NCBI GenBank assembly: GCA_038154685.1
Contig: JAYPYW010000001.1
Location: 36,761 to 100,760 of the forward strand
Direction: 5' to 3'
DNA from: Flavobacteriales bacterium
GTDB lineage: Bacteria > Bacteroidota > Bacteroidia > Flavobacteriales_C > GCA-002722245
Length of the DNA: 64,000 nt
The notes below the pieces were generated by a model, which ran no database searches, was not told the DNA's origin, and was given only the letters and a program-made list of their open reading frames with translations. This document shows positions 24,211-52,293 of the stretch, in pieces. How positions within the stretch are numbered: position 1 is the first letter of the stretch; the number at the start of each line of letters is the position of its first letter. Both the position numbers and the translations under genes were made by a program.

Positions 24211-24339
24211 CTACAAAATCATTTGAATCGCTAAAATAAGCGAAAATAATGAAGAGATATAGGATAAATAGAATTTCGTTAAAACAAAAAAAGGGACTAA
24301 AAAGTCCCCCAAGGCATTGTTTATTTTAGTCTTTAAGAA

Positions 24340-37000: not shown

Positions 37001-38527
37001 TCACCTAACTATAAAAGATTTATTTACTACTCCATTATCACCACTCAATTGGGTAATATAGATGCCCGGTTTGAATGAACTTAAATTAACAGCGTAATTC
37101 TTTGCATTTACAATATGATTATTCATAACGATTTCACCATTCATATTGAATATTGAAATGCCTTCAATCTCTTTTTCGCAAACAAAATCAACAAATCCAT
37201 CTCTTTGAAAAACATAAACTTCTGATGCTTTATTATCCGGCGAAACCACAACTACTTCTGAGTAACCAAAAGTTCCATCAAAATCAATTTGTTTTAATCT
37301 GTAAAATGTTTTTTCGTGAGGAGCATAATCATCAACAAAAGTATAATCTATCATTTGCACTGCATTTCCAGCTCCTGATTCCCAGCCTATTTCTTCCCAA
37401 TTAAGCCCATCAATACTTCTTTGGATTTCAAATCCATCGTTATTTATTTCGGCTCCAGTTTTCCATTTTAAAACATTCTTACCCTCAAGATGTTCAGCCA
37501 TAAAACTCACCAAATCCACCGGTAATGCAGTGGTTGCAGTAATCCTAAAAACACTTTCTAACATTCCAAACATATCCGCTGCGCCAGAAGCTGAAAATTC
37601 GCTGGTAGAGGATAAAATTGTACCTGTACGATATTGAGCTCCTCCTGAGATACCATCTTGTTCAGAAAATCCAGTATATGTTCCACTCCCATTTGTAAGA
37701 GATGAATTATTAATGAGTGTTTGATTTGTTCCTGCAGATATCGTTCTGTCTCCAGAAGCTGCAGCCAAACTAAAAATTGCGTTATTTCCATCATTTGGTG
37801 CAGCAGAAGCGGTAGATATAGAATTACAATTACTACAATTAGCATTGCTCACATTACTCATCCCTGCGACATTTTCAAACATTAAAGCCCCAAAAATGGC
37901 ATCATCTCCAGCATTTGACGGGTTATTAAAATTAGCTGTTATATTAAAAGAGTTTGTACCGGTAGGTATATTCGCCTCCAACGTACCGTAAACCATAAGC
38001 TCTAAACTCATATCTGCATCCGATTCTGTATCGATTGCGTCATATTCATAAATCCATTGTGAACTTAAATGAGATAACGTGGTTGTAGAAATTTCAACCG
38101 TTGGCACACTACCTCCTGTTGGCGCATTACTTGCCCAGTTATCACCAGTGGCTCCAGGCGCATGATCTCTTTCTACTATCATAAAGAAAATCAACACCCT
38201 ATCCGACCCTGCTGTAGTAGTATATGATAAACTAGGAACGCCCCCTGCGCCACTCCCTGATGCCGTTGCTACATCGTAACTCCCCGATAAGTATGAAACC
38301 TGCCCTACTAACATCATGGGAAATAATAATATTGCCCAAATCCCCCTCATAATTCTATTAACGAGATTTTTAAAATAAGGTTTTACATGTAACGAAATAC
38401 GTTTTTTACCGTAGTAAATAGCTAAAAGGTTTTTAGTTATGAGAAATTTAAGGATTATAGGGGTAGTATTAGTGGGGTTGACACTAATTTCTTGTGAAAA
38501 AGACTTCGTTGAAGAAGATTTTGACAT
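37001..38527 (-). CDS. Secreted protein with type IX secretion system C-terminal sorting domain (T9SS cargo); Ser/Thr/Gly/Asn-rich central region
   Basis: C-terminal about 80 aa (GISIFNMNGEIV...PGIYITQLSGDNGVVNKSFIVR) matches the Por_Secre_tail pattern. Preceded by a conserved about 95-aa domain shared with the gene at 39967-41544. Confidence 0.7.
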   Translation of the reverse strand: MSKSSSTKSFSQEISVNPTNTTPIILKFLITKNLLAIYYGKKRISLHVKPYFKNLVNRIMRGIWAILLFPMMLVGQVSYLSGSYDVATASGSGAGGVPSLSYTTTAGSDRVLIFFMIVERDHAPGATGDNWASNAPTGGSVPTVEISTTTLSHLSSQWIYEYDAIDTESDADMSLELMVYGTLEANIPTGTNSFNITANFNNPSNAGDDAIFGALMFENVAGMSNVSNANCSNCNSISTASAAPNDGNNAIFSLAAASGDRTISAGTNQTLINNSSLTNGSGTYTGFSEQDGISGGAQYRTGTILSSTSEFSASGAADMFGMLESVFRITATTALPVDLVSFMAEHLEGKNVLKWKTGAEINNDGFEIQRSIDGLNWEEIGWESGAGNAVQMIDYTFVDDYAPHEKTFYRLKQIDFDGTFGYSEVVVVSPDNKASEVYVFQRDGFVDFVCEKEIEGISIFNMNGEIVMNNHIVNAKNYAVNLSSFKPGIYITQLSGDNGVVNKSFIVR

Positions 38528-38897: not shown

Positions 38898-38977
38898 AAT
38901 AAATAGTGGCTTCGGCCACTTTTTTGTTTTACAAATCATATAAAAACTGGGTTAAAATTGAAACATTTTATGTTTAA

Positions 38978-39966: not shown

Positions 39967-41544
39967 ATGAAAAACTTTAGTAAAATTTTATTCCCACTTC
40001 TTACGGGACTATTTTTCTTAAATATTAAATCAAGTACAGCACAGTGTTCGCAAGATCCTTGGGTTGCTTGTTTTCCTTCATGTACTTATGTTACAGGAGA
40101 TACAGTTTCTTACAGCAGTCAGGACTGGGTTGTAGGGGCAAATACAACATGGTCTTACCTCGCACCTGGTACAGATGGCGGAGGAACATGGACCGCTATT
40201 CCTGGTGCTTGTGCAGGAACTACAACTCCAATAGTATCTCCTACTGAAATAAGAGGAACCTATTGTACGACTACTTTCGGAATCGGTAATATTACTCGTA
40301 ATGGAGGAGCTGCAATTACGGCAAGAGGGCATGTTTTTAGCACCTCTCCAAATCCAACATTAACAGACGGAGTTTTAGTAGATGCCGGAAATGGTGTAGG
40401 AGATGAGTTTGAAGGATTAATTCCTGATTTAGCACCCTCAACTACGTACTACGTGCGAACATATGCTACAAACAGTCAAGGAACCAGATACGGTACCCAG
40501 GCAACACTAACTACTAAAGATGCAGTTGATTGTGCTGATTGTAATTTAGCCTGTGATGAAACGGATTCAAAATGGTTAGATCCAACCTCAGCAGAGTGGT
40601 CTACAGCTCCATTTGCAACAATCAACACAACCGATACAGTTTGTATTACACAAGATGTGACAATTGGTGGAACGATTACTTTATATGGTATGTTCAAGAT
40701 TTGTAACGGAGCAACAGTTACATTAAGTGGATCAATTGATGTACAAACTGCAACACCTACAAACCCCAATTATGAAGGACAAGTTGTATACGAAGGATGT
40801 AACGAAATTTTTGACGGTACTGGATCTTATACTGGCGAGTACTTAGTTATTGAAGCTAAAAACGATCCACTTCAAATGATCAGCTATTGCGAAACATGTA
40901 ATGAAAATGACCAATCACAGTTCTTCAAGCCAACTGTTTCTACTGCTTATTGGGCAGCTACTTGTAGACCAACTTCTACTGTTTTAACACCGCTTCCAGT
41001 TGAGCTAACTTCGTTTAGTGGACAATTAACAGAAAACGGTGTTGAGCTAAACTGGGAAACTGGTGCCGAAATAAACAATAGCCATTTCAATGTGCAAGTC
41101 TCTTACGATGGAGTTAATTGGAAAACTATTGGTGTTGTTCAGGGAGCTGGAAACTCAACGGTTAACCTAAATTACTTTTTCTTAGATAACCAAGAAGGAA
41201 CTGGTGTACAATACTACAGATTAGAGCAAGTTGATTTTGATGGAACTAATGCTTTTTCAAACGTAATTCATGTATCATTCAATGAAAAGGACATGCCAAA
41301 AGCTTTTATTGCTTTTCAAAATTCAGAAAGAAAAGTTGAAATACAAGCTAAATTTAGCGGTATGGGAGAGGCTTATTTAATGGATACTCGAGGAAGAATA
41401 GTTGATACCAAAACATTTATTAGTACAAGTAAATCTGGTACTCAATTCGAATTTGACTCTACCAATTTATCAGAGGGTGTTTACTTTGTAAAAATCAAAT
41501 CTGGTAACGCTCTACTTGGTGAGAAAGTTCAAATTACGAAGTAA
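39967..41544 (+). CDS. Secreted Cys-rich protein with T9SS C-terminal sorting domain (T9SS cargo)
   Basis: Signal peptide MKNFSKILFPLLTGLFFLNIKSSTA. C-terminal Por_Secre_tail-like domain (...LSEGVYFVKIKSGNALLGEKVQITK). Shares the LPVELTSF...NWETGAEINN...YRLEQVDFDGT domain with the gene at 37001-38527. Confidence 0.7.
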   Translation: MKNFSKILFPLLTGLFFLNIKSSTAQCSQDPWVACFPSCTYVTGDTVSYSSQDWVVGANTTWSYLAPGTDGGGTWTAIPGACAGTTTPIVSPTEIRGTYCTTTFGIGNITRNGGAAITARGHVFSTSPNPTLTDGVLVDAGNGVGDEFEGLIPDLAPSTTYYVRTYATNSQGTRYGTQATLTTKDAVDCADCNLACDETDSKWLDPTSAEWSTAPFATINTTDTVCITQDVTIGGTITLYGMFKICNGATVTLSGSIDVQTATPTNPNYEGQVVYEGCNEIFDGTGSYTGEYLVIEAKNDPLQMISYCETCNENDQSQFFKPTVSTAYWAATCRPTSTVLTPLPVELTSFSGQLTENGVELNWETGAEINNSHFNVQVSYDGVNWKTIGVVQGAGNSTVNLNYFFLDNQEGTGVQYYRLEQVDFDGTNAFSNVIHVSFNEKDMPKAFIAFQNSERKVEIQAKFSGMGEAYLMDTRGRIVDTKTFISTSKSGTQFEFDSTNLSEGVYFVKIKSGNALLGEKVQITK

Positions 41545-41566
41545 AACAATCACAAAATACTTTTAA

Positions 41567-41593
41567 GGGGAATCAAATTGATTCCCCTTTTTG
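41567..41593 (+). terminator. Rho-independent terminator
   Basis: GGGGAATCA-AAT-TGATTCCCC hairpin followed by TTTTTG. Confidence 0.8.
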
Positions 41594-41634
41594 TTTATTA
41601 ATCACTATATTTGTTGCAACAAATTTTATAAAGT

Positions 41635-42165
41635 ATGAAAAAGATAATCGCTTTCTCAGGAAGTAATAGTAAAAATTCTATTAATCAAAAATTAGCTATG
41701 GTAGCGTCTAAAATGGTTACTAAAGCTGAAGTTGAAATAATAAATCTTAGCGATTATTCTGCTCCCATTTATGGTATTGACGAAGAAACAGAGAATGGAT
41801 TTCCGCAAAGTATGATAGATTTAAAAAATAAGCTGGCAGAAGCGGATGGTTATATTATTTCAACTCCTGAGCATAATGGCTCAATTCCTGCTTTTTTCAA
41901 AAATGCAATAGATTGGCTTTCCAGACAAAGTAGATCTGTTTTAAACGACCAGCCAACTGTTTTCCTAAGCACATCACCAGGTGCCAGAGGAGGTAAAACT
42001 GCCTTAGCTCATTTGGTAAGTATCATGCCTTACCAGGGAGCAAAAGTCATTGGATCACACTCAGTGGGAAGTTTCAATGATAAAATGCTTAATGAAGACC
42101 TAATTGAAGGTGAAGATAAAACAGCAATCCTTCAATTAATTAAAGATTTAGAAAGTCAGTTATAA
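41635..42165 (+). CDS. NAD(P)H-dependent FMN reductase (flavodoxin-like fold)
   Basis: MKKIIAFSGSNSKNSINQKLA...ISTPEHNGSIPA pattern of the FMN_red family. Confidence 0.8.
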   Translation: MKKIIAFSGSNSKNSINQKLAMVASKMVTKAEVEIINLSDYSAPIYGIDEETENGFPQSMIDLKNKLAEADGYIISTPEHNGSIPAFFKNAIDWLSRQSRSVLNDQPTVFLSTSPGARGGKTALAHLVSIMPYQGAKVIGSHSVGSFNDKMLNEDLIEGEDKTAILQLIKDLESQL

Positions 42166-43089
42166 AGCTGATTCAACTAATTGTTTTAGTTCTTCTTGCG
42201 ATTGAAATTGGGCTATATTATCGTAATTCGATTTCAATTGATTTTCATCTCTGCAATGGAACCAAAGTTTTGGGTTATGCCCACTTTTTAATTGATGATG
42301 AATATCCTTAAGAAAACTACTTAGGTCCTGTATTTTAGGATAAACTGTAAAACTGGAAACATAAATTACATCTTCTAACTCGTTAAAAAGAGCTAAATTG
42401 TCTGTAGGGGTAGATTGTCCCAAGTACACAGTTTTTGCTCCTCTAATTCTTAAATAAAGATTAACGTACAACAGTCCTATTTCATGCAATTCGTAATCGG
42501 GTAAAAACAGTACAAAAACAGGTCCTTCACTCTTATAATTCTTCGGAACTTGAGCAGTACTTAAAATAAGCTTCTGTTTTACAACATTGGCTACAAAATG
42601 CTCGTGAGCCGGTGTTATTTTAGAGCTCTGCCAAAGGAGACCTACCTTATTTAAAATCGGAAAAATCACCTCCGTATAACCCAATTCAAGACCTAATCTT
42701 TCAATTATTTTATCGATTATTTTATCGATGGCCTCTTCATCAAAAGTAAGAATAGCCAGTTTTAATTGATCATTGAAATATAAATGCGACTTATCTCCAA
42801 TAATTTTTTCATTAACTAAAGTCTCTAACTGAGATTTTGGAAGACTGGCAATTTTGGAAATCTTATAACCGCTCTCCGTCAGGTAAGCTAAGTTCAACAA
42901 TCGTTTTAAAGATTCTGTTGAATATATCCTTTGATTTCCTTCCGAACGTTCAGGTTCTAACGCAGAATATCTTTGTTCCCAAACTCTTATTGTATGAGCC
43001 TTTATTTCAGATAAGTTCTCCAAATCTTTTATGGAGAATGTATTTTGTATCAATTTAGTCGCCAACTTCACTAGTATATGTGCAAGCAA
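42160..43089 (-). CDS. MerR-family regulator with C-terminal cobalamin-binding domain (CarH/LitR-like, putative light/B12-responsive)
   Basis: N-terminal MerR HTH (FSIKDLENLSEIKAHTIRVWEQRY). W-x9-EH motif (WQSSKITPAHEH) and B12 lower-ligand motif E-x-H-x-x-G (ELHEIG) within a Rossmann-like domain. Confidence 0.65.
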   Translation of the reverse strand: MLAHILVKLATKLIQNTFSIKDLENLSEIKAHTIRVWEQRYSALEPERSEGNQRIYSTESLKRLLNLAYLTESGYKISKIASLPKSQLETLVNEKIIGDKSHLYFNDQLKLAILTFDEEAIDKIIDKIIERLGLELGYTEVIFPILNKVGLLWQSSKITPAHEHFVANVVKQKLILSTAQVPKNYKSEGPVFVLFLPDYELHEIGLLYVNLYLRIRGAKTVYLGQSTPTDNLALFNELEDVIYVSSFTVYPKIQDLSSFLKDIHHQLKSGHNPKLWFHCRDENQLKSNYDNIAQFQSQEELKQLVESAL

Positions 43090-43117
43090 AATAAAAATTT
43101 TCCAAACAAAATCCTTT

Positions 43118-44161
43118 CTATTCTATAGCTTCCCACCATCGATTCGAATCAAAAGTTTCATTTATCAGTTTTTGCTGACCTAATTTAGGACAAACCCAAT
43201 AAAGGCCTTTTTCTTCAGCACTTTTAACGAAATCAATAACGGGTGTTTTCCATTTATGAGGAGCCAATGAAAAACCAGCCCAGTGAACTGGCATAATTCT
43301 TTTTACCCCAGCATCTAAAGCTGCCTGAACGCTTTCATCTGGAAACATGTGAATTTGACGCCACAATTCATGGTATTGACCACATTCCATAAATCCAAAA
43401 TCAAAAGGGCCTAGCTTCTCTCCTACCAATTTAAAATGATCGCCATAACCTCCATCTCCACTGAAGTAGATGTTTTCACTCGAACTCTTTATAGTCCAAC
43501 CACCCCAAAGGGATTTATTCCTGTCTAAAATTCCTCTTCCTGAAAAATGACGGGTAGGTGTAAATGTGATTTCTATACCCTCTAATTCAGATTTATCCCA
43601 CCAATCAAACTCTTTTACTTTCTCAGGGTAGATTCCCCAACTTTCAAAATGCCGTTTTGTACCTTTTGCTACCCAATACTTTTTTACTTTTGATTTTAGC
43701 TTATTTATGCTTGCTAAATCTAGATGATCATAGTGATCGTGACTCAACAAAAGCAAATCAATTTTGGGTAAATTATCAATTAAATCTAAAGTCCCTTTTG
43801 AAAACCTCTTAGTTTTAAATGGCGCTATTGGAGAAGCATCAGGACCTAACATTGGATCGATTACAATAATCTTTCCTTCAACATTAAGTAATACAACTGA
43901 ATGCCCAAACCAAATAAACTTCGCAGAGGAGGAGGATGATAAAAAAGAATCTTTGTCAAATTCCTCTATCGTAATCGGATTCATAGGTGATCTCCCTTTT
44001 GTTTTAAAAAAATTCTCGTAAATCATACCGGGAAAATCTTTTAGTTTAAAGTCCATTTTAGTTTCCACTAAATTCTCAAAACTCTTTCCTTTCCAATTTG
44101 ACGATTGTGCTAATTCGCGCTTTAATTGTTTAGTTATTTTCCCTCCAAATTGCTTTTTCAT
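43118..44161 (-). CDS. Metallo-beta-lactamase-fold hydrolase, NAPE-PLD-like (soluble paralog)
   Basis: FIWFGHSVVLL...IDLLLLSHDHYDHLD, then downstream His/Asp ligands. The pattern parallels N-acyl-phosphatidylethanolamine phospholipase D. Confidence 0.75.
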   Translation of the reverse strand: MKKQFGGKITKQLKRELAQSSNWKGKSFENLVETKMDFKLKDFPGMIYENFFKTKGRSPMNPITIEEFDKDSFLSSSSSAKFIWFGHSVVLLNVEGKIIVIDPMLGPDASPIAPFKTKRFSKGTLDLIDNLPKIDLLLLSHDHYDHLDLASINKLKSKVKKYWVAKGTKRHFESWGIYPEKVKEFDWWDKSELEGIEITFTPTRHFSGRGILDRNKSLWGGWTIKSSSENIYFSGDGGYGDHFKLVGEKLGPFDFGFMECGQYHELWRQIHMFPDESVQAALDAGVKRIMPVHWAGFSLAPHKWKTPVIDFVKSAEEKGLYWVCPKLGQQKLINETFDSNRWWEAIE

Positions 44162-45300
44162 TCTGCTAGCTTATCCCACCAAGGGTTATAATTTAAGTTT
44201 ATAGCATCTAATTTAATCGTCTCCCCAATTTGCGGTGTAATAATATTTACTCCAAGTGAATCTGCAGCCTTTTTTATCCTTACAGGTGGCTCAAACCAAT
44301 CATGTAAGGAAAGTGTAAAAGCTCCCCAATGAATTGGTATTCCAAATTTTGCTTTCAAATCTTTTACTGCCAAGGCTGACTCTTCTGGCTGCATATGAAT
44401 TTGCTTCCAGTTTTTATTGTACTGCCCACATTCAACCATTGCTATATCAAACGGGCCGTATTTATCCCCTATAGCTGCAAAGTGATCATCATATCCTCCA
44501 TCCCCACTAAAGAATATCTTCTGATTTTCTCCTTTAATAACCCATGAACCCCACAATGTTGAATTATGATTTAACAAACCTCTACCTGAAAAGTGTCGCG
44601 TTGGAGTAAGTGCAAAATTTAATCCATCAATCGAATCCTCATCCCACCAATTATATTCATGAATTTTATTTTCCGGGATACCCCAAGATTTAAAATGAGC
44701 TCCAACTCCGTATGGCAAAATAAATTGTTTAACCTTAGGATGAATTTGTTCTATCGTTTCATAATCCAAATGATCATAATGATCGTGAGAAATAAAAACA
44801 AAATCAATTGCTGGCAATTCTTCAATCTCAAGTGGAATATGTTTATTATATCTACTTCTCGAAAGCCATTTGATTGGAGAAGGAGCTTCGCCAAGCATAG
44901 GATCTAGCAAAATGTTTTTATTATCTAATTGAAGTAGAAACGCTGAATGGCCAAACCAAATTAGTTTGGGCTCTGAGCGAGTCTTTTCTAAAACCAAAGA
45001 ATCTTGATCTAAGAATGGTACTTCGAACAAAGGATCTCGATTAGGATTTTCTTTATAATACTCCTTTAGCGTGCTCCAAAACACATCCCATGAAAACCCG
45101 CGAGAGGTATTGTGATAGTTTTTAAATTTCCCATCTGAATAATGACCAGATTTTTCAAATTTCAAAACATCCTCTTCAGTAGGATCACCTCCAAACTCAG
45201 GGCTTACATTAACAAAAACAATCCCAATAAAAATTACTGATAGCAGCAAAAGGAAAAACCACTTAAGCAACTTCTTAAACCATTTCCACAGCAACTTCAT
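44158..45300 (-). CDS. Metallo-beta-lactamase-fold hydrolase, NAPE-PLD-like (N-terminal TM anchor paralog)
   Basis: N-terminal TM WFFLLLLSVIFIGIVFVNV, then LIWFGHSAFLL...IDFVFISHDHYDHLD. 4-nt overlap with the downstream paralog. Confidence 0.75.
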   Translation of the reverse strand: MKLLWKWFKKLLKWFFLLLLSVIFIGIVFVNVSPEFGGDPTEEDVLKFEKSGHYSDGKFKNYHNTSRGFSWDVFWSTLKEYYKENPNRDPLFEVPFLDQDSLVLEKTRSEPKLIWFGHSAFLLQLDNKNILLDPMLGEAPSPIKWLSRSRYNKHIPLEIEELPAIDFVFISHDHYDHLDYETIEQIHPKVKQFILPYGVGAHFKSWGIPENKIHEYNWWDEDSIDGLNFALTPTRHFSGRGLLNHNSTLWGSWVIKGENQKIFFSGDGGYDDHFAAIGDKYGPFDIAMVECGQYNKNWKQIHMQPEESALAVKDLKAKFGIPIHWGAFTLSLHDWFEPPVRIKKAADSLGVNIITPQIGETIKLDAINLNYNPWWDKLAE

Positions 45301-45306
45301 TAAATG

Positions 45307-45483
45307 CTATTTAAAGATCTTAAGAGAAACTAAGTTGGCTACAAAATCGGCGGAACCAAAAATTGATCTAACAAATAAATTAGACTGCTTATCCAATATT
45401 TCAGCTGAAAGCTTCCAAGTATTGAGCATCTTAAAAAATGCAATTCCAACAAGAATAGTTACGAAAGAATATACCAGTATCAT
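45307..45483 (-). CDS. Candidate 58-aa small membrane protein ORF upstream of the MBL-hydrolase operon (not in the supplied ORF track)
   Basis: My own reverse-strand translation gives MILVYSFVTILVGIAFFKMLNTWKLSAEILDKQSNLFVRSIFGSADFVANLVSLKIFK* with one TM helix. No independent support. Confidence 0.2.
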   Translation of the reverse strand: MILVYSFVTILVGIAFFKMLNTWKLSAEILDKQSNLFVRSIFGSADFVANLVSLKIFK

Positions 45484-45549
45484 TGCTTTAAGTTTCCTCT
45501 AATTTACCATTAAAGTTGCCTAAAGAATTCATTATTTGATGAACGGATC

Positions 45550-45574
45550 AAAAAAAAGGCCGAAAACCGGCCTC
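45550..45574 (-). terminator. Rho-independent terminator after the OmpA-family gene (reverse strand)
   Basis: On the reverse strand, AGGCCGG-TTTT-CGGCCT followed by T8, directly after the stop. Confidence 0.7.
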
Positions 45575-45577
45575 ACT

Positions 45578-47818
45578 TTATATTTGGATTTGTTGCTCAA
45601 TGTCTTCTTTAGAATCCGACTTTTCAAATTTTCGCAGCACAAAACTTATTCTATTCTGTTCTAAATTCTTCTTAAAATCTTCCTTTGGGATCATATAAGG
45701 ATTCATTTCATCATCAAATGCTATTAAAGCTTTCGCAAACTTTTTGCTAATCTCAAATTTGTACGGACTGTAATCCATGTAGCCATCAAATCTCATTACT
45801 CCGTTTAGCATCTCATCAAAAACATAAATAACTGCAATATCCAATTTCTTCCCGTTTTCATCTTTGTAATCTGCCACAATTAAATCAGGCTTCACTAATT
45901 GTTTTATAGCATCCGCGTTGAATGTCCCCATTGCACTCAGACTAACATTTAGCCCAGTGCCATCAAGGGCATTCTTCATTTTATCTTGTCGAGCCTGCTC
46001 CATCATATATTTATTATTTCTAAAACTACAATTTGCATACTCACTTGATAATAAGTGATTACTAATTGATGGATTAAAATTGGCTTGATCACCATCAAAT
46101 TCTCCTAACCATGCAACTTCATTTTGAGTGGTAAATTCTTTATCGAAACTAAAGCCAGCAAAAGTTGAAACATCTTTTAAAAACTGATGCTGAGTAATAA
46201 TAGCTTGCGCCTCTTCTATTTGCTTTCTTACAGGATCTAATTGAGCAGTGAGTTTATCTAACTTTTTATTAAGTTTTGCAAACGATTCTTGGTACTCATT
46301 ATATAATTCAGCGTACATGCTTAGTGCTCTTTTCCTTTTAGCAGGAGCTTTGTAAAAAGACAGCCATCCAACTGAACTAACTTTTAAATTAGGTAAGGAA
46401 TCGTTCAAAACCATGTTTGATTTGCTCCCCCTGCTCCATGTTTTATATAATAACTTGTAGGTTAAAGAAAGTTCTCCATTATTTTCCACAAGCGTCAAAT
46501 TTGTAATTTCTGATTTGTGTTTAAAAGCTGCTCTCCTATTTTTTGATCGAACTTCTTTTTTATTTACCTCAAATAGCATTTTATTAAAAGCATCCGTTTC
46601 GTCATTTCTATGGTTCTTAGATTTCCTATGCAGATTTAGTGAAAAATAGGCTTTACCATTTTTAGTGCTAACCTTTTTCAATTTATAACGATGCTCTTTG
46701 TTTTTGATCTTTACTCCAACTGCCTTTATCTTTTTTGTCAACCTAGCTTGTCTGGCAAATAATGATTTTCTTAAGCGATAAACACTATCAATATCTACTC
46801 CCTCAAGTAAGTTCAAGCTTTGCTGGTAATCAGGAGTTATTTCATTATTTGTGTATTTTGAATTCAACTTAAATGCCACCATCCCCCTTCTACAATCTGG
46901 CGTGTTTTCAAATTCTTCATCGTGGCCTAATGTGAGTGAATTCTGATTTATAGTTTGACCGTTATTCCACTCTTTGGTTTGATCATCGAAAGCATAAAAT
47001 CTTGATTCACTTTGGTTTTTCTTAAGGTTCAACTCCGTATCAATGGATTTCCCAGGAGCCAGGGATAACTCTTCATTTCCTTGTTTAGCTTCAATTCTAA
47101 ACATTCCATCAGATTGAAAAAATGCAATCCTACCATCTTGCTCTAAATTCATAGGTTCATTCGCGAAAACAAAGTCTAGCGGGTCTCTATATTCAATAAC
47201 TTCAACGGTCACGCTCCCTTCGATTAGGTTTCCATTTTTATCTACAAAAGCATCCTTAGGAATATTAAATTTACTACCTGACTTTGTTTCAATTTCAGCC
47301 CCATTAGCACAAGAAAAATTGTAAGCTTCTGCCTTCAGTTCATACCCAGCAATATTAGTAGGTTGATAATTCTTTGTTGAAATTTCTACATGAGTTCTTC
47401 GGTTAATAGCTTTACCAGCATCCGTATTATTGGAAGCCACAGGGTTATCTGAACCATAGTAATTAATCACTATTTGATCTTCTGGTATTCCCATTTCTAC
47501 TAAATAATTCTTAACAGAGGCTGCTCTCTTTTGAGATAAAATTTGATTCTTTTCTGGATCTCCAGATGCATCTGTATAACCAGATAATTTCACCTCATAA
47601 GCTTTCTTAATATTAGTAAGTTCTCCAAAGTTTTTTTTCAGTTTGCTATACTCCTCTGGCTTAAATCTACTTGAGTTAGAATCAAAAAAGACATCAAATT
47701 CCTTTACAATTTTTTGCCCGAAAAGAGTTGAATAAATAAAAAACGACAGAATTAATAATATTGAGTTTCTCATGGTGCTTGATTTTTTATTTATAACACT
47801 AAAAACTAGAAAAGACAC
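45578..47818 (-). CDS. OmpA-family protein with N-terminally placed OmpA-like domain and about 600-aa C-terminal region of unknown function
   Basis: Signal peptide (MRNSILLILSFFIYSTLFGQ is the likely start). OmpA_C-like motif LSGYTDASGDPEKNQILSQKRAASVKNYL...NRRTHVEI at residues about 60-140. The rest is K-rich and unassigned. Confidence 0.7.
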   Translation of the reverse strand: MSFLVFSVINKKSSTMRNSILLILSFFIYSTLFGQKIVKEFDVFFDSNSSRFKPEEYSKLKKNFGELTNIKKAYEVKLSGYTDASGDPEKNQILSQKRAASVKNYLVEMGIPEDQIVINYYGSDNPVASNNTDAGKAINRRTHVEISTKNYQPTNIAGYELKAEAYNFSCANGAEIETKSGSKFNIPKDAFVDKNGNLIEGSVTVEVIEYRDPLDFVFANEPMNLEQDGRIAFFQSDGMFRIEAKQGNEELSLAPGKSIDTELNLKKNQSESRFYAFDDQTKEWNNGQTINQNSLTLGHDEEFENTPDCRRGMVAFKLNSKYTNNEITPDYQQSLNLLEGVDIDSVYRLRKSLFARQARLTKKIKAVGVKIKNKEHRYKLKKVSTKNGKAYFSLNLHRKSKNHRNDETDAFNKMLFEVNKKEVRSKNRRAAFKHKSEITNLTLVENNGELSLTYKLLYKTWSRGSKSNMVLNDSLPNLKVSSVGWLSFYKAPAKRKRALSMYAELYNEYQESFAKLNKKLDKLTAQLDPVRKQIEEAQAIITQHQFLKDVSTFAGFSFDKEFTTQNEVAWLGEFDGDQANFNPSISNHLLSSEYANCSFRNNKYMMEQARQDKMKNALDGTGLNVSLSAMGTFNADAIKQLVKPDLIVADYKDENGKKLDIAVIYVFDEMLNGVMRFDGYMDYSPYKFEISKKFAKALIAFDDEMNPYMIPKEDFKKNLEQNRISFVLRKFEKSDSKEDIEQQIQI

Positions 47819-48802: not shown

Positions 48803-50266
48803 TTATAGTCCTCCTAAAACTGAACTGAAGTAGTCTTGGAAGGATGTACTTCTTTTTAATTGTTTTCTATCTAACAATGAGAACTCAGCTAAAGCAGTAA
48901 GCAAAAATTCTTTTAAAACTGCTTGTTCTGATTTATCCGAAGTTAACTTGTTAGTTTTTTCTTCTAATCCAGAAACAGTATCTAAACCAGACTCATATTC
49001 AGCTTGAGGCATTTCATTTAGCAAGTCTAATTTCTGACCACTCTCAAACCAACTTGTAATTGCCATGTATTGCTCTTTTAAATCTTGGGGAGCACGCTTT
49101 TGACTTAAGTGATGAATGTTTTGGAAGTATTCAGGAGCAATAGATCTAATTGCTTGTCCAATTAATCTTCTGGCCACATTTGGAGCGCCTTCTTGCTCTC
49201 CTTCATAAACCATTTCAATCTTACCAATGATTGCTGGAATAGTAGCCGTTAAATCACCTATTCTTGCAATTCCTTTTTCATCTCCATTAATCAGCATTCT
49301 ACGCTCAACAGCACTTAAAACATTTTCGTAAGCAGATATTGGTAAACGAGCTGAAACACCACTCTTAGCATCAATAAACTCACTCTCTCGAGCTTCTATT
49401 GCTATTTGTTCTATCAGTTTTTCAATCACTTCAGGAACAACAATATTCTCTTGTCCTCTTTGTTTTGAAACTTCTTGCTTGGTAATGATTCTTCCTATTT
49501 CATTTGATTCAGGATAATGCGTGTAAATCTGACTCTGAATTCTGTCTTTTAAAGGAGTAATAATAGATCCCCTATTTGTATAATCCTCAGGGTTAGAAGT
49601 AAATATAAACTGAACATCCATTGGGATTCTTAATTTATAACCTCTGATTTGTAAATCACCTTCTTGCAATAGATTAAACAAGGCAACCTGAATTCGAGGT
49701 TGTAAATCTGGCAATTCATTGATCACAAATAAACCTCTGTTGGACCTTGGAATTATCCCGTAATTAATTACTTCTTCGCTAGAAAGGCTCAACTTTAGGT
49801 TAGCCGCCTTAATTGGATCTACATCTCCAATTAAATCTGCAATATTTACATCAGGAGTGGCTAATTTTTCAGCGTACCTGCCTGATCTATGCAACCAATC
49901 TATAGGTGTTTCGTCACCCATTTCAGCCACCTTACCCTTTGAAGCTGTGGTAATTGGATGTAAAGGATCTTCATTTAACTCTGACCCTTCAATTATAGGA
50001 ATATATTCATCTAATAATTGAATTAATAACCTAGCCATTTTAGACTTTCCCTGACCTCTTAAACCTAAAAAGTTAATACTATGACCAGCTAAAACAGCCC
50101 TTTCCAATTCAGGAATAACAGTATCGTCATATCCAATTATGTTTTCAAAAACCTTTTCACCAGATCGAAGCTTTTGAGCTAAATTATCTCTTAACTCCTC
50201 CGTTACGGTTTTAAATTGGTATCCTGCAGCTTTTAAAGCTCCTAATGTTTTGATTGAAGTATCCAT
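48803..50266 (-). CDS. AAA+ ATPase, Mg-chelatase ChlI/BchI-like
   Basis: Walker A GLRGQGKSKMARLL. The segment GLFVINELPDLQPRIQVALFNLLQEGDLQIRGYKLRIPMDVQFIFTSNPEDY...PLKDRIQ parallels the ChlI sensor-1/arginine-finger region. Start overlaps the upstream VWA gene stop (TAATG). Confidence 0.6.
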   Translation of the reverse strand: MDTSIKTLGALKAAGYQFKTVTEELRDNLAQKLRSGEKVFENIIGYDDTVIPELERAVLAGHSINFLGLRGQGKSKMARLLIQLLDEYIPIIEGSELNEDPLHPITTASKGKVAEMGDETPIDWLHRSGRYAEKLATPDVNIADLIGDVDPIKAANLKLSLSSEEVINYGIIPRSNRGLFVINELPDLQPRIQVALFNLLQEGDLQIRGYKLRIPMDVQFIFTSNPEDYTNRGSIITPLKDRIQSQIYTHYPESNEIGRIITKQEVSKQRGQENIVVPEVIEKLIEQIAIEARESEFIDAKSGVSARLPISAYENVLSAVERRMLINGDEKGIARIGDLTATIPAIIGKIEMVYEGEQEGAPNVARRLIGQAIRSIAPEYFQNIHHLSQKRAPQDLKEQYMAITSWFESGQKLDLLNEMPQAEYESGLDTVSGLEEKTNKLTSDKSEQAVLKEFLLTALAEFSLLDRKQLKRSTSFQDYFSSVLGGL

Positions 50267-51360
50267 TATCTTCTCTTTTTATTTCTTTCGTAATCGGCAA
50301 AAATAAAGTTGCCTAATCCCTCTAAGCTGGCGTAAAATGCCTTTCCTCTATTAGTCTCGGTGAATTGCTCCACAAATTCCTGTAAATAAGGATCTTGAGC
50401 AATCATGAATGTGGTAACAGGAATTTTCAGCTTCCTACATTGAGCCGCCAAATTGATCGTTTTCCTTAACACTTTTGGGTCCTGCCCCATACTGTTTTTA
50501 TAATACGTTCCATCCGCATTTTTTAGGCATGTTGGCTTCCCATCAGTAATCATGAAAATCTGTTTATTTCCAGCTTTCCGCTTCCTTAATAAGTCCATTG
50601 CCAATTCCAAACCAGCTACGGTATTTGTATGATAAGGCCCAACCTGTAAATAGGGTAAATCCTTAATTTGAATTTGCCAGGCGTCATTTCCAAAAACAAT
50701 CACATCTAAATTATCCTTCGGATATTTAGTCCTGATTAATTCAGCTAAAGCCATAGCCACTTTTTTTGCGGGCGTAATTCGGTCTTCACCGTAAAGTATC
50801 ATCGAATGGGAGATATCAATCATCAAAACGGTACTCATGCTGCTTTTATGTTCATTTTCATAAACAACAAGGTCTTCATTTTGAAGATCAAAATCATCAA
50901 TACCACCCCTTATTTGGGCATTTTTTATACTCGTTTGAAAATCGATTTGCTGCAAAGAATCTCCATATTGATATGGCCTTTGATCGGGCGTAAACTCATC
51001 CCCTTTTCCAATCTTACTGGAACGATGATTTCCACCGGTATCCTTCTTTAGTTTCCCAAAAATTTGATCAAGTGATCTCTTTCGGATTAATTGCTCGGCT
51101 TTACCTGTTAATTTCTGACTTTTCCCTTGAGTGGAACTAGATAAATATCCGTTTTTTTCAAGGTCGTTTCTAAAATCTTCCAGCGTATAATCAGGAGTTG
51201 TTAATTTATGCTCCTGATCAATCATTTCCATCCATCTGAAGGTTTCTTCAACATCCCCAGAAGTATGCACCATAATCTCTAAAAAAAGCTCTAACAACTT
51301 CTCAAATGGTGAACGATTATCTTCTGGTTCTATGTATTTTTCAAATCGATGTCCAAGCAT
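50266..51360 (-). CDS. von Willebrand factor A (VWA/MIDAS) domain protein, partner of the ChlI-like ATPase
   Basis: MIDAS motif in VLMIDISHSM (DxSxS), downstream T and D ligands (FMITDGKPT), 364 aa. Confidence 0.7.
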   Translation of the reverse strand: MLGHRFEKYIEPEDNRSPFEKLLELFLEIMVHTSGDVEETFRWMEMIDQEHKLTTPDYTLEDFRNDLEKNGYLSSSTQGKSQKLTGKAEQLIRKRSLDQIFGKLKKDTGGNHRSSKIGKGDEFTPDQRPYQYGDSLQQIDFQTSIKNAQIRGGIDDFDLQNEDLVVYENEHKSSMSTVLMIDISHSMILYGEDRITPAKKVAMALAELIRTKYPKDNLDVIVFGNDAWQIQIKDLPYLQVGPYHTNTVAGLELAMDLLRKRKAGNKQIFMITDGKPTCLKNADGTYYKNSMGQDPKVLRKTINLAAQCRKLKIPVTTFMIAQDPYLQEFVEQFTETNRGKAFYASLEGLGNFIFADYERNKKRR

Positions 51361-51516: not shown

Positions 51517-52293
51517 TTATGTTAAAGCGTAAGCATTTATTTCATTATTAATACCAGACCATAAATCAAACCTAGCATTTAATGATAATTTTGCTACCTC
51601 TTCTGATTCTTCCCATTTCTGATCACTTTCACCGCATAACTCTGAAATCATTTTCAAAGCAAGAGGACCGTGATCATCGCCATCCAACTCAATATGTCGC
51701 TCTAAATAATACCTAAGCTTTTTGTATTGATTGTTTTCAGGATCAACTGATTTGACAATCGATAAAAACATCTCTGGAATAACATCCTCTCTTCCAAATG
51801 TAAATGAAGAAGCTACTTTATGAGCAGAATTGCTATTGATAATCTTAAAAGTATTAAGAACAAACGCTTTAGTTTGATCAGCTATTTTTAAGTTTTTTAA
51901 AGCATCTTCAATAGATCCACCCTTTTGCAAATTATAAACAAAAGTTACAATTGGTTGCGTATCTGCCCCTATTTCATTCATCGCATCTAAATACATTTCA
52001 AAATGACTTCTTGGATTTCCATCAATGTCTAAGTCAGACTCTTCCCCAAGAACGATTTCGTTTATAAATCTTGATGTCAATGAATTATCAACGGGTAGCC
52101 ATGGAATTTCAACACAAGTCAATCTCTTTTGCAAACATTTTAAAAGACTCATAAAATCCCAAACCGCAAAGACATGATTTTTCATAAAAACCTTAATGTC
52201 TTCAATAGATTTTAGATTATTATAGAAATCATGCTCAGAAAGCTTTTTCTGATAAACTTCAATAGAACTCTCTAACTTTTGAATCTTATCCAT
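51517..52293 (-). CDS. Hypothetical protein, DUF3050-like
   Basis: HVFAVWDFMSLLKCLQ motif, which I recall from DUF3050 proteins (heme-oxygenase-like fold). Not verified. Confidence 0.4.
   Translation of the reverse strand: MDKIQKLESSIEVYQKKLSEHDFYNNLKSIEDIKVFMKNHVFAVWDFMSLLKCLQKRLTCVEIPWLPVDNSLTSRFINEIVLGEESDLDIDGNPRSHFEMYLDAMNEIGADTQPIVTFVYNLQKGGSIEDALKNLKIADQTKAFVLNTFKIINSNSAHKVASSFTFGREDVIPEMFLSIVKSVDPENNQYKKLRYYLERHIELDGDDHGPLALKMISELCGESDQKWEESEEVAKLSLNARFDLWSGINNEINAYALT

Follow-up and report, generated by a model that had tools for sequence, protein, structure and literature searches.

The CarH photoreceptor of Thermus (TtCarH; structures 5C8D, 5C8E and 5C8F) is composed of a MerR DNA-binding domain, a four-helix bundle and a Rossmann-like B12 domain. 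Its operator consists of three 11-bp direct repeats (nAnnTnnACAn), and tandem direct repeats are bound by the CarH proteins of both Thermus and Bacillus (PMC8156234). According to a review, CarH homologs are jointly defined by the motifs W-x9-EH, which caps the adenosyl group and is lacking in CarA, and E-x-H-x-x-G (PMC8156234). CarH/LitR-type regulators and their place at flavobacterial carotenoid (crt) gene clusters are already known; a MerR gene heading such a cluster was noted earlier in Sediminicola sp. YIK13 (PMC4732338) and in Nonlabens spongiae (PMC11855829). The gene investigated here encodes a regulator of this type and is located on a 64-kb stretch of DNA (contig JAYPYW010000001.1; hereafter the window, to which all coordinates refer), which is AT-rich (about 35% GC) and whose closest sequence matches are uncultured Flavobacteriales.

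On the minus strand, a mini-gene, two paralogous genes for hydrolases of the metallo-β-lactamase (MBL) fold, termed MBL380 and MBL347, and the regulator gene follow each other in this order, and a gene for a flavin mononucleotide (FMN) reductase lies on the plus strand (Table 1). All open reading frames of the initial annotation were confirmed, including the overlap of 4 nucleotides (nt) between the two hydrolase genes. Two details of the layout required correction. The reductase gene had been described as divergent; it is convergent with the regulator gene instead, with a 3' overlap of 6 nt. The gap behind MBL347, given as 29 nt, amounts to 46 nt because the regulator starts at GTG 43071, the start supported by homologs and aligned in five loci; up to the first TTG it amounts to 28 nt.

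In the reading favoured here, to which we assign a probability of roughly 0.55, the regulator represses the reductase gene in the dark via a palindrome on the reductase promoter, and the hydrolases form a separate unit. Homologous loci used for comparison are labelled L002, L006, L087, L090 and so on, with L003 grouped with L002 and L174 with L173.

Table 1. Positions of genes, motifs and promoter or terminator elements of the locus.
Feature	Position	Strand	Remarks
Terminator hairpin of upstream type IX secretion system (T9SS) cargo gene	41565-41589	+	11-bp stem, then T-run; 5' limit of reductase unit
14-bp perfect palindrome TTTGTTGCAACAAA (TTTGTT-GC-AACAAA)	41610-41623	.	Candidate regulator operator
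YieF/ChrR-like NAD(P)H-dependent FMN reductase	41635-42165	+	Convergent with regulator
CarH/LitR-type regulator	42160-43071	-	303 amino acids from GTG 43071; open frame extends to TTG 43089
E-x-H-x-x-G codons (E194, H196, G199)	42475-42492	-	Predicted lower axial His ligand; aligned to TtCarH H177
W-x9-E-H codons (W147, E157-H158 of the 303-residue protein)	42598-42633	-	Aligned to TtCarH W131, E141, H142
TATTTTG, near match to the Bacteroidota -7 element TAnnTTTG	43087-43093	-	Possible own promoter of the regulator
MBL347, paralog of MBL380	43118-44161	-	No N-terminal hydrophobic segment
MBL380, predicted NAPE-PLD-like MBL-fold hydrolase	44158-45300	-	N-terminal hydrophobic signal-anchor
Mini-gene, 58 amino acids	45307-45483	-	N-terminal hydrophobic helix; leads hydrolase unit
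-7-like box of mini-gene/hydrolase unit, TAAATTAG (TAAATTTG in L002, L090)	45499-45506	-	From alignment of four upstream regions
Conserved block CCGTTCATCAA upstream of hydrolase promoter	45536-45546	-	In window, L006, L002, L090; also L087
Terminator of upstream OmpA-domain gene	45556-45574	-	8-bp stem and T-run; 5' boundary of hydrolase unit

The regulator and its carotenoid-linked relatives

The initial annotation had recognised the regulator as CarH/LitR-like, and this identity was substantiated. It matches the Pfam models MerR_1 (E 3.5e-14, residues 18-81) and B12-binding_2 (E 6.6e-12), and its top match among solved structures is TtCarH (5c8d, E about 5e-16 to 6e-16, 20-22% identity). 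The N-terminus aligns to TtCarH's DNA-binding domain, and the model shows a helix-turn-helix and a wing in this part. Both defining motifs align column for column to TtCarH. The W-x9-EH motif reads LLWQSSKITPAHEH, with W, E and H invariant in 46 family members, and ELHEIG is aligned with ERHEIG of TtCarH; this second motif and a G-x-x-x-P motif are likewise invariant across the 46 members. An AlphaFold model built on the 46 family sequences (pLDDT 85, pTM 0.80) comprises a winged helix, a four-helix bundle and a five-stranded Rossmann-like B12 domain. The best Foldseek matches of this model are full-length TtCarH structures, and the B12 domain alone compares to TtCarH with a target-normalised TM-score of 0.77-0.83 and a root mean square deviation of 2.8-3.9 Å. 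Judged by sequence and model, the regulator is a class I-like member of the CarH/LitR family, possessing both B12 subdomains and both motifs, and binding of B12 and a response to light would be expected of it. Class II LitR proteins of Pseudomonas (PplR/PmlR) belong to the same family and have non-carotenoid outputs, among them oxidoreductases and UfaM (PMC9758184). Unlike the class I-like regulator of the window, they lack the Rossmann B12 domain and have LOV partners.

A homolog search with the regulator gave more than 7000 matches, among them a large flavobacterial branch. In 71 of 80 metagenomic relatives (L091-L170, 37-44% regulator identity), crtI and/or crtB lies directly downstream, and the order regulator-crtI-crtB-crtZ-crtY was found in L004 (Mariniflexile) and L171. 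All examined relatives below 56% identity are linked to carotenoid genes. The flavobacterial regulators heading crtI-crtB-crtZ(-crtY) resemble the one described here in their length of about 300 residues, in identity (37-46%), in the recognition helix, in the B12 motifs and in operator arms placed on the -7 box. They differ in that members of the present clade (at least 56% identity to each other) are not situated beside crt genes; here the regulator is convergent with a reductase gene, and the palindrome has a 2-nt centre versus mostly 1 nt at crt-linked sites. The window contains no crt genes, and neither Rfam families, including cobalamin riboswitches, nor tRNAs were detected in it. As neither clade shows any variation in the recognition helix (KAHTIRxWExRY), the two are expected to have a similar DNA specificity.

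The 80 metagenomic loci also served for a survey of the putative family operator. In 46 of 72 crt-linked regulator genes, TAnnTTTGTT[TA]AA precedes the ATG by about 25 nt; at the remaining TAnnTTTG sites of these loci, the extension TT[TA]AA is present in only about 4%. Of 24 occurrences of the exact palindrome TTTGTT-N-AACAAA in 586 kb, 22 are located before the regulator or between the regulator and crtI/crtB. Sites with a 2-nt centre are rare at the regulator and crt promoters of the crt-linked set (one exact site and three with one mismatch); one exact site of this kind stands before crtI in L171.

The near match to the -7 element in front of the regulator may represent its own promoter. 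The sequence (TTATTTTG/TTACTTTT) is conserved in the window, L006, L002, L090 and L089. In L089 it lies within a non-coding stretch of 258 nt, and no co-directional gene is present upstream. This stretch (L089 309-566) contains seven copies of TTGTTTAA/TTAAACAA versus 0.1 expected, and looks like a multi-site autoregulatory region. The final copy abuts the GTG start of the regulator. Such a repeat cluster is missing from the 46-nt gap of the window, and an enrichment of TTGTTTAA in the window as a whole was rejected (10 matches versus 11.6 expected).

The palindrome on the reductase promoter

The reductase consists of 176 amino acids and belongs to the FMN_red family (PF03358, E 9e-40; 136 bits versus a gathering cut-off of 24). 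Among the structures in the PDB it matches YieF (3svl, E 3e-19) and a chromate reductase (E 3e-17), in both cases over residues 4-140. It thus shares family and approximate size with YieF of E. coli and the ChrR-type reductases of Pseudomonas and Gluconacetobacter (3SVL, 3S2Y); unlike these, it has a palindrome of the CarH-family type on its promoter and lies tail-to-tail with a gene for a B12 photoreceptor-like regulator. The two genes adjoin each other in the window, L002, L006, L090 and L089. Six lineages have a reductase at least 69% identical; the regulator gene adjoins it in five of them, one of which has different flanks. In L089 (regulator 56%, reductase 70% identical), the gene upstream of the pair is oppositely oriented, and no hydrolase lies upstream.

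The Leu-stop codons at the two 3' ends share a palindromic TTATAA (42160-42165), and equivalent overlaps occur at L002 8907-8912, L006 4308-4313 and L090 3703-3708; in L089, the spacing between the two genes is 105 nt. No strong terminator was detected between the convergent genes on either strand. Owing to this and to the 3' overlap, each transcript could extend antisense into the opposite gene.

The reductase promoter has its -7 box TATATTTG at 41606-41613; the 14-bp palindrome overlaps this box and ends 12 nt ahead of the start codon ATG. It is the sole exact TTTGTT-NN-AACAAA site in the window, with about 0.03 such sites expected by chance per 64 kb (our estimate). An exact site is also present at the orthologous reductase promoters of L006, L090, L089 and L173, which, including the window, makes five of six lineages; on the reductase strand, the centres in these four loci read GC, AC, AT and AC, respectively. 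Operators usually combine conserved arms with a spacer that is free to vary. Because the arms are conserved while the centre varies, the palindrome was interpreted as a putative operator. In L173, the first site is followed, 27 nt further downstream, by another that has a single mismatch. A more distant reductase (61%), which has no regulator nearby, lacks the palindrome.

Other candidate sites in the window were rejected. Tandem direct repeats of the TtCarH type (ANNTNNACA twice, at most one mismatch) occur 9 times versus 11 expected, none of them near the locus. Two palindromes with one mismatch (24275-24288 and 38923-38935) are themselves T-tails of terminators and were dismissed as promoter sites, and another one-mismatch match at 43998 lies within the coding sequence of MBL347.

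On these grounds, the following course of regulation is proposed. The regulator would be a diverged paralog or a relocated copy of the flavobacterial CarH/LitR-type regulators of carotenoid operons. By analogy with CarH of Thermus and Bacillus, it would bind adenosylcobalamin (AdoCbl) in the dark, oligomerise and occupy the operator overlapping the promoter, whereas light would cleave the Co-C bond and release it. In overlapping a promoter element, the candidate operator would resemble that of TtCarH. The likeliest direct local target would be the convergent YieF/ChrR-like reductase; because TTTGTT-GC-AACAAA covers its -7 box, its gene would be silent in darkness and expressed under light. A plausible role of the enzyme might be the defence against photo-oxidative stress. 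The mini-gene and the two hydrolase genes would have their own promoter with no such operator. The regulator gene sits where L087 has a terminator-like hairpin, and its transcripts may arise in two ways, through read-through of the hydrolase unit and at a weak promoter located within the 46-nt gap.

Several points weigh against this reading. Binding of the palindrome by the regulator is guilt by association, and the site is a candidate operator. In L002, whose regulator is 72% identical, the site at the reductase promoter is degenerate. L173 has kept the exact palindrome without an adjacent regulator; the factor would thus have to act in trans in this locus, and another protein might be involved. 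The centre has 2 nt at the reductase sites, compared to mostly 1 nt at the crt-linked sites, and a palindrome of 13-14 bp over the Bacteroidota -7 box is unlike the direct repeats of TtCarH. Furthermore, the regulator is co-oriented with the hydrolases in four lineages, which has to be treated as an insertion accident. The remaining points concern the B12 domain. Of the domain models with which the initial annotation had proposed to confirm its assignments, those for MerR, B12-binding_2 and Lactamase_B_2 match, but the Rossmann model B12-binding (PF02310) gives no match to the regulator at E ≤ 0.01, though the fold is predicted. The NCBIfam equivalog model NF052513 (TransRegCarH) is matched with 82.1 bits, which is below its cut-off of 400; by this measure, the regulator is a family relative and not an equivalog of the CarH modelled there. 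A light-response signature has been published as GxxW, EH, GxxH and GxxxP (PMC11796333). Three of these four elements are present (GLLW, EH and GQSTP), and GxxH reads YELH, with a residue other than glycine at this position throughout a 14-member family alignment. This YxxH, as well as the neighbouring FMN reductase in place of carotenoid or photolyase genes, distinguishes the regulator from TtCarH.

The same deviations, together with the canonical GG of B12 Rossmann domains, which is not evident in our reading of the alignment, could mean that the B12 domain has diverged and that the regulator responds to B12 independently of light, or is independent of B12 like CarA of Myxococcus. We consider this very unlikely, as W-x9-EH, which CarA lacks, is invariant along with E-x-H-x-x-G and G-x-x-x-P in all 46 members, and the modelled B12 domain superposes on that of TtCarH at 2.8-3.6 Å.

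Another explanation is that the regulator is the carotenoid regulator of the genome, or belongs to a dispersed light regulon, and acts in trans on crt genes elsewhere, with its adjacencies being incidental and the reductase palindrome possibly bound by another factor. It would account for the crt linkage of every examined relative below 56% identity, for the invariant recognition helix and for the palindrome of L173, and it agrees with the lack of crt genes in the window and with the gene content between the hydrolases and the TonB/HMA block, which varies among relatives (see below). An incidental adjacency is difficult to reconcile with the persistence of the regulator-reductase pair in five of six lineages, once with different flanks, or with a palindrome that has the arms of the family on a -7 box, as at crt-linked promoters. 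We regard this explanation as unlikely; it can coexist with repression of the reductase if the regulon includes both.

The hydrolases and their gene neighbourhoods

Both hydrolases match Lactamase_B_2 (MBL380 E 9e-40, MBL347 E 4e-39) and human N-acyl-phosphatidylethanolamine phospholipase D (NAPE-PLD, 4QN9; MBL347 E 3e-42, MBL380 E 6e-51 over its residues 108-353), in agreement with the initial annotation, which had described two paralogs with a NAPE-PLD-like metal-binding region. The alignments extend over the whole MBL core (NAPE-PLD residues 122-372). In MBL380, the metal-ligand motifs of NAPE-PLD are aligned as SHDHYDH, TRHF, GDGGY, IHM and IHWG. SHDHYDH, TRHF, GDGGY and (I/V)HW align in both paralogs, and equivalents of H-x-H-x-D-H, H253, D284 and H343 are present. 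The ligand motifs of the binuclear zinc site are invariant in 25 hydrolase homologs. On this basis, both proteins are predicted NAPE-PLD-like MBL-fold enzymes.

Unlike NAPE-PLD, the hydrolases have N-terminal parts of about 100 residues of their own: the alignments begin at NAPE-PLD residue 122-124, and neither protein shows similarity to the first approximately 120 residues of NAPE-PLD. MBL380 and MBL347 are 39% identical to each other, and this alignment starts at residue 32 of MBL380, past its hydrophobic N-terminus. The additional N-terminus of MBL380 is lysine-rich and then hydrophobic, and the suggested difference between one anchored and one non-anchored hydrolase is borne out as a prediction. 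A further difference to NAPE-PLD is that no lipid genes are conserved near the bacterial hydrolases, where genes for TetR-type regulators and short-chain dehydrogenases/reductases (SDR) recur. Nothing relevant on characterised bacterial NAPE-PLD homologs was found in the literature searched.

The open reading frame in front of MBL380, considered a possible membrane mini-protein at first, is a real gene, since its length of 58 amino acids is the same in five loci (window, L006, L002, L090 and L087) and substitutions fall predominantly on the third base of codons (in one comparison, 10/0/36 for the three positions). The homolog in L173 is 66% identical. No Pfam or NCBIfam match was obtained for the mini-gene.

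The initial annotation had suggested that the light/B12 sensor controls the hydrolases. The complete block of mini-gene, MBL380, MBL347, regulator and convergent reductase recurs in L006, L002/L003 and L090, with regulator identities to the window of 88%, 72% and 71%, respectively, and the linkage of hydrolases and regulator is limited to this narrow lineage (regulator identity at least 71%). L087, in which MBL380 is 70% identical and the same VWA/AAA/helicase flank is found, has the mini-gene and both hydrolases and neither regulator nor reductase; a terminator-like hairpin with a T-run follows MBL347. L088 (64%) contains a single hydrolase and no regulator. In L173/L174, a TetR gene and part of an SDR gene accompany the hydrolase pair; a regulator is absent, and the convergent reductase lies 757 nt away. 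No remnant of a regulator was detected by tblastn between the reductase and MBL347 of these two loci even at E ≤ 10.

MBL380 homologs form a widespread family, nearly always present in single copy. Up to a distance of 7 kb from the hydrolase homolog (40-59% identity), the regulator does not occur in any of 80 GTDB species-representative genomes, which come from Bacteroidota, Paenibacillus, Bdellovibrio, Vibrio and other groups. The recurrent neighbours in these genomes are genes for SDR (18 loci), TetR (10), an NAD(P)-binding protein (9) and response regulators, and none of the conserved neighbours gives a clue to lipids. TetR and SDR genes are frequent here and also occur in L173/L174, where a TetR gene and an SDR fragment of 83 residues separate the homolog of the mini-gene from MBL380 (L173 8498-9847, L174 6845-7964); for this reason, the usual regulator of the hydrolase family may be a TetR-type ligand sensor.

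The promoter region of the hydrolase unit contains neither TTTGTT/AACAAA arms nor direct repeats of the TtCarH type, and its conserved CCGTTCATCAA block is present in L087, too, whose hydrolase locus has no regulator. An inverted repeat in this promoter (TTCAT-N6-ATGAA) was rejected as a candidate site, as it is not conserved in L002 and its block occurs in the regulator-less L087. Since linkage was found in 0 of 80 genomes, L087, L088 and L173 keep their hydrolase(s) without the regulator, and L087 has the same promoter block, the comparison of sequences indicates that the unit of mini-gene and two hydrolases is independent of the regulator and, in the favoured reading, older. The proposed control of the hydrolases, and with it a new regulatory theme coupling light sensing to N-acyl-lipid hydrolysis, is not supported, and this comparative evidence argues against it.

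An arrangement in which mini-gene, MBL380, MBL347 and regulator form one autoregulated, dark-repressed operon with the hydrolases as light/B12 output has nevertheless to be weighed. The genes share one strand with a gap of 28-46 nt. In the window, no terminator could be detected behind MBL347 ahead of the regulator, whereas L087 has a terminator-like hairpin at this position; four lineages, with regulators as low as 71% identical, have retained the gene order. Lipid outputs would also not be unprecedented, because the lipid-modifying UfaM (furan fatty acid synthase) belongs to the class II LitR light regulon of Pseudomonas (PMC9758184). Against this stand the operon promoter without family arms or TtCarH-type repeats, the conservation of its block in L087, where no regulator is adjacent, the absence of the regulator from all 80 hydrolase loci elsewhere and the TetR and SDR genes found there instead. 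In addition, a conserved -7-like element precedes the GTG of the regulator even in L089, which lacks a co-directional upstream gene. Taken together, hydrolases as regulated output appear improbable. Co-transcription as such is possible in view of the shared strand, the 46-nt gap and the lack of a detected terminator; in that case, the hydrolase promoter would drive expression of the regulator, and the hydrolases would not be its output.

What lies between the hydrolase gene(s) and a conserved block of T9SS-cargo, TonB-receptor and HMA genes differs among the relatives: this slot is empty, occupied by the reductase alone, or occupied by regulator and reductase (window 39967-42165, L087 8752-9061, L088 8141-8272, L173 4265-6290). 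This suggests repeated local insertion and deletion.

Implications and neighbouring genes

If the regulator represses the reductase as proposed, the outputs of CarH-type B12 photoreceptors in marine Flavobacteriales would extend beyond carotenoid genes, and the light regulon would include a quinone/flavin reductase. A testable candidate operator for a very large uncharacterised flavobacterial branch would be given by TTTGTT-N1-2-AACAAA at the -7 box; it could be used for mapping light regulons in abundant ocean bacteria and might also serve as a compact green-light switch for the genetics of Bacteroidota. No report of such a regulator paired with an operator-bearing FMN reductase was found in the literature searched, and the putative operator of the flavobacterial branch appears to be unreported there as well.

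A more far-reaching variant is that regulator and reductase constitute a self-contained light switch with chromophore maintenance, in which the repressor would come off under light, the reductase would be switched on and it would reduce photolysed cob(III)alamin for re-adenosylation. A step for recovery and reuse of irreversibly photolysed AdoCbl is listed as unidentified (PMC8156234), and the reductase would supply it if this variant were true; read-through from the hydrolase unit would then tie the dosage of the regulator to the state of the envelope or of lipids. We consider this highly improbable.

Some genes in the surroundings showed further peculiarities. The OmpA-domain protein upstream of the hydrolase unit (45578-47818, minus strand) contains a stretch of about 600 residues without a family match, a layout which is unusual for the OmpA family. 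Two proteins, encoded at 37001-38527 (minus strand) and 39967-41544 (plus strand), have a C-terminal Por_Secre_tail, which serves type IX secretion sorting, as their only recognisable domain; both flank small unannotated lipoprotein-like open reading frames. The minus strand at 48803-51360 and 51517-52293 encodes a MoxR-like AAA protein, which matches Mg_chelatase and Sigma54_activat weakly, followed by a VWA-domain protein. In L087 and L088, synteny of this pair with the hydrolase locus is observed, and a gene for a DUF3050 protein (E 5e-98) adjoins the pair.

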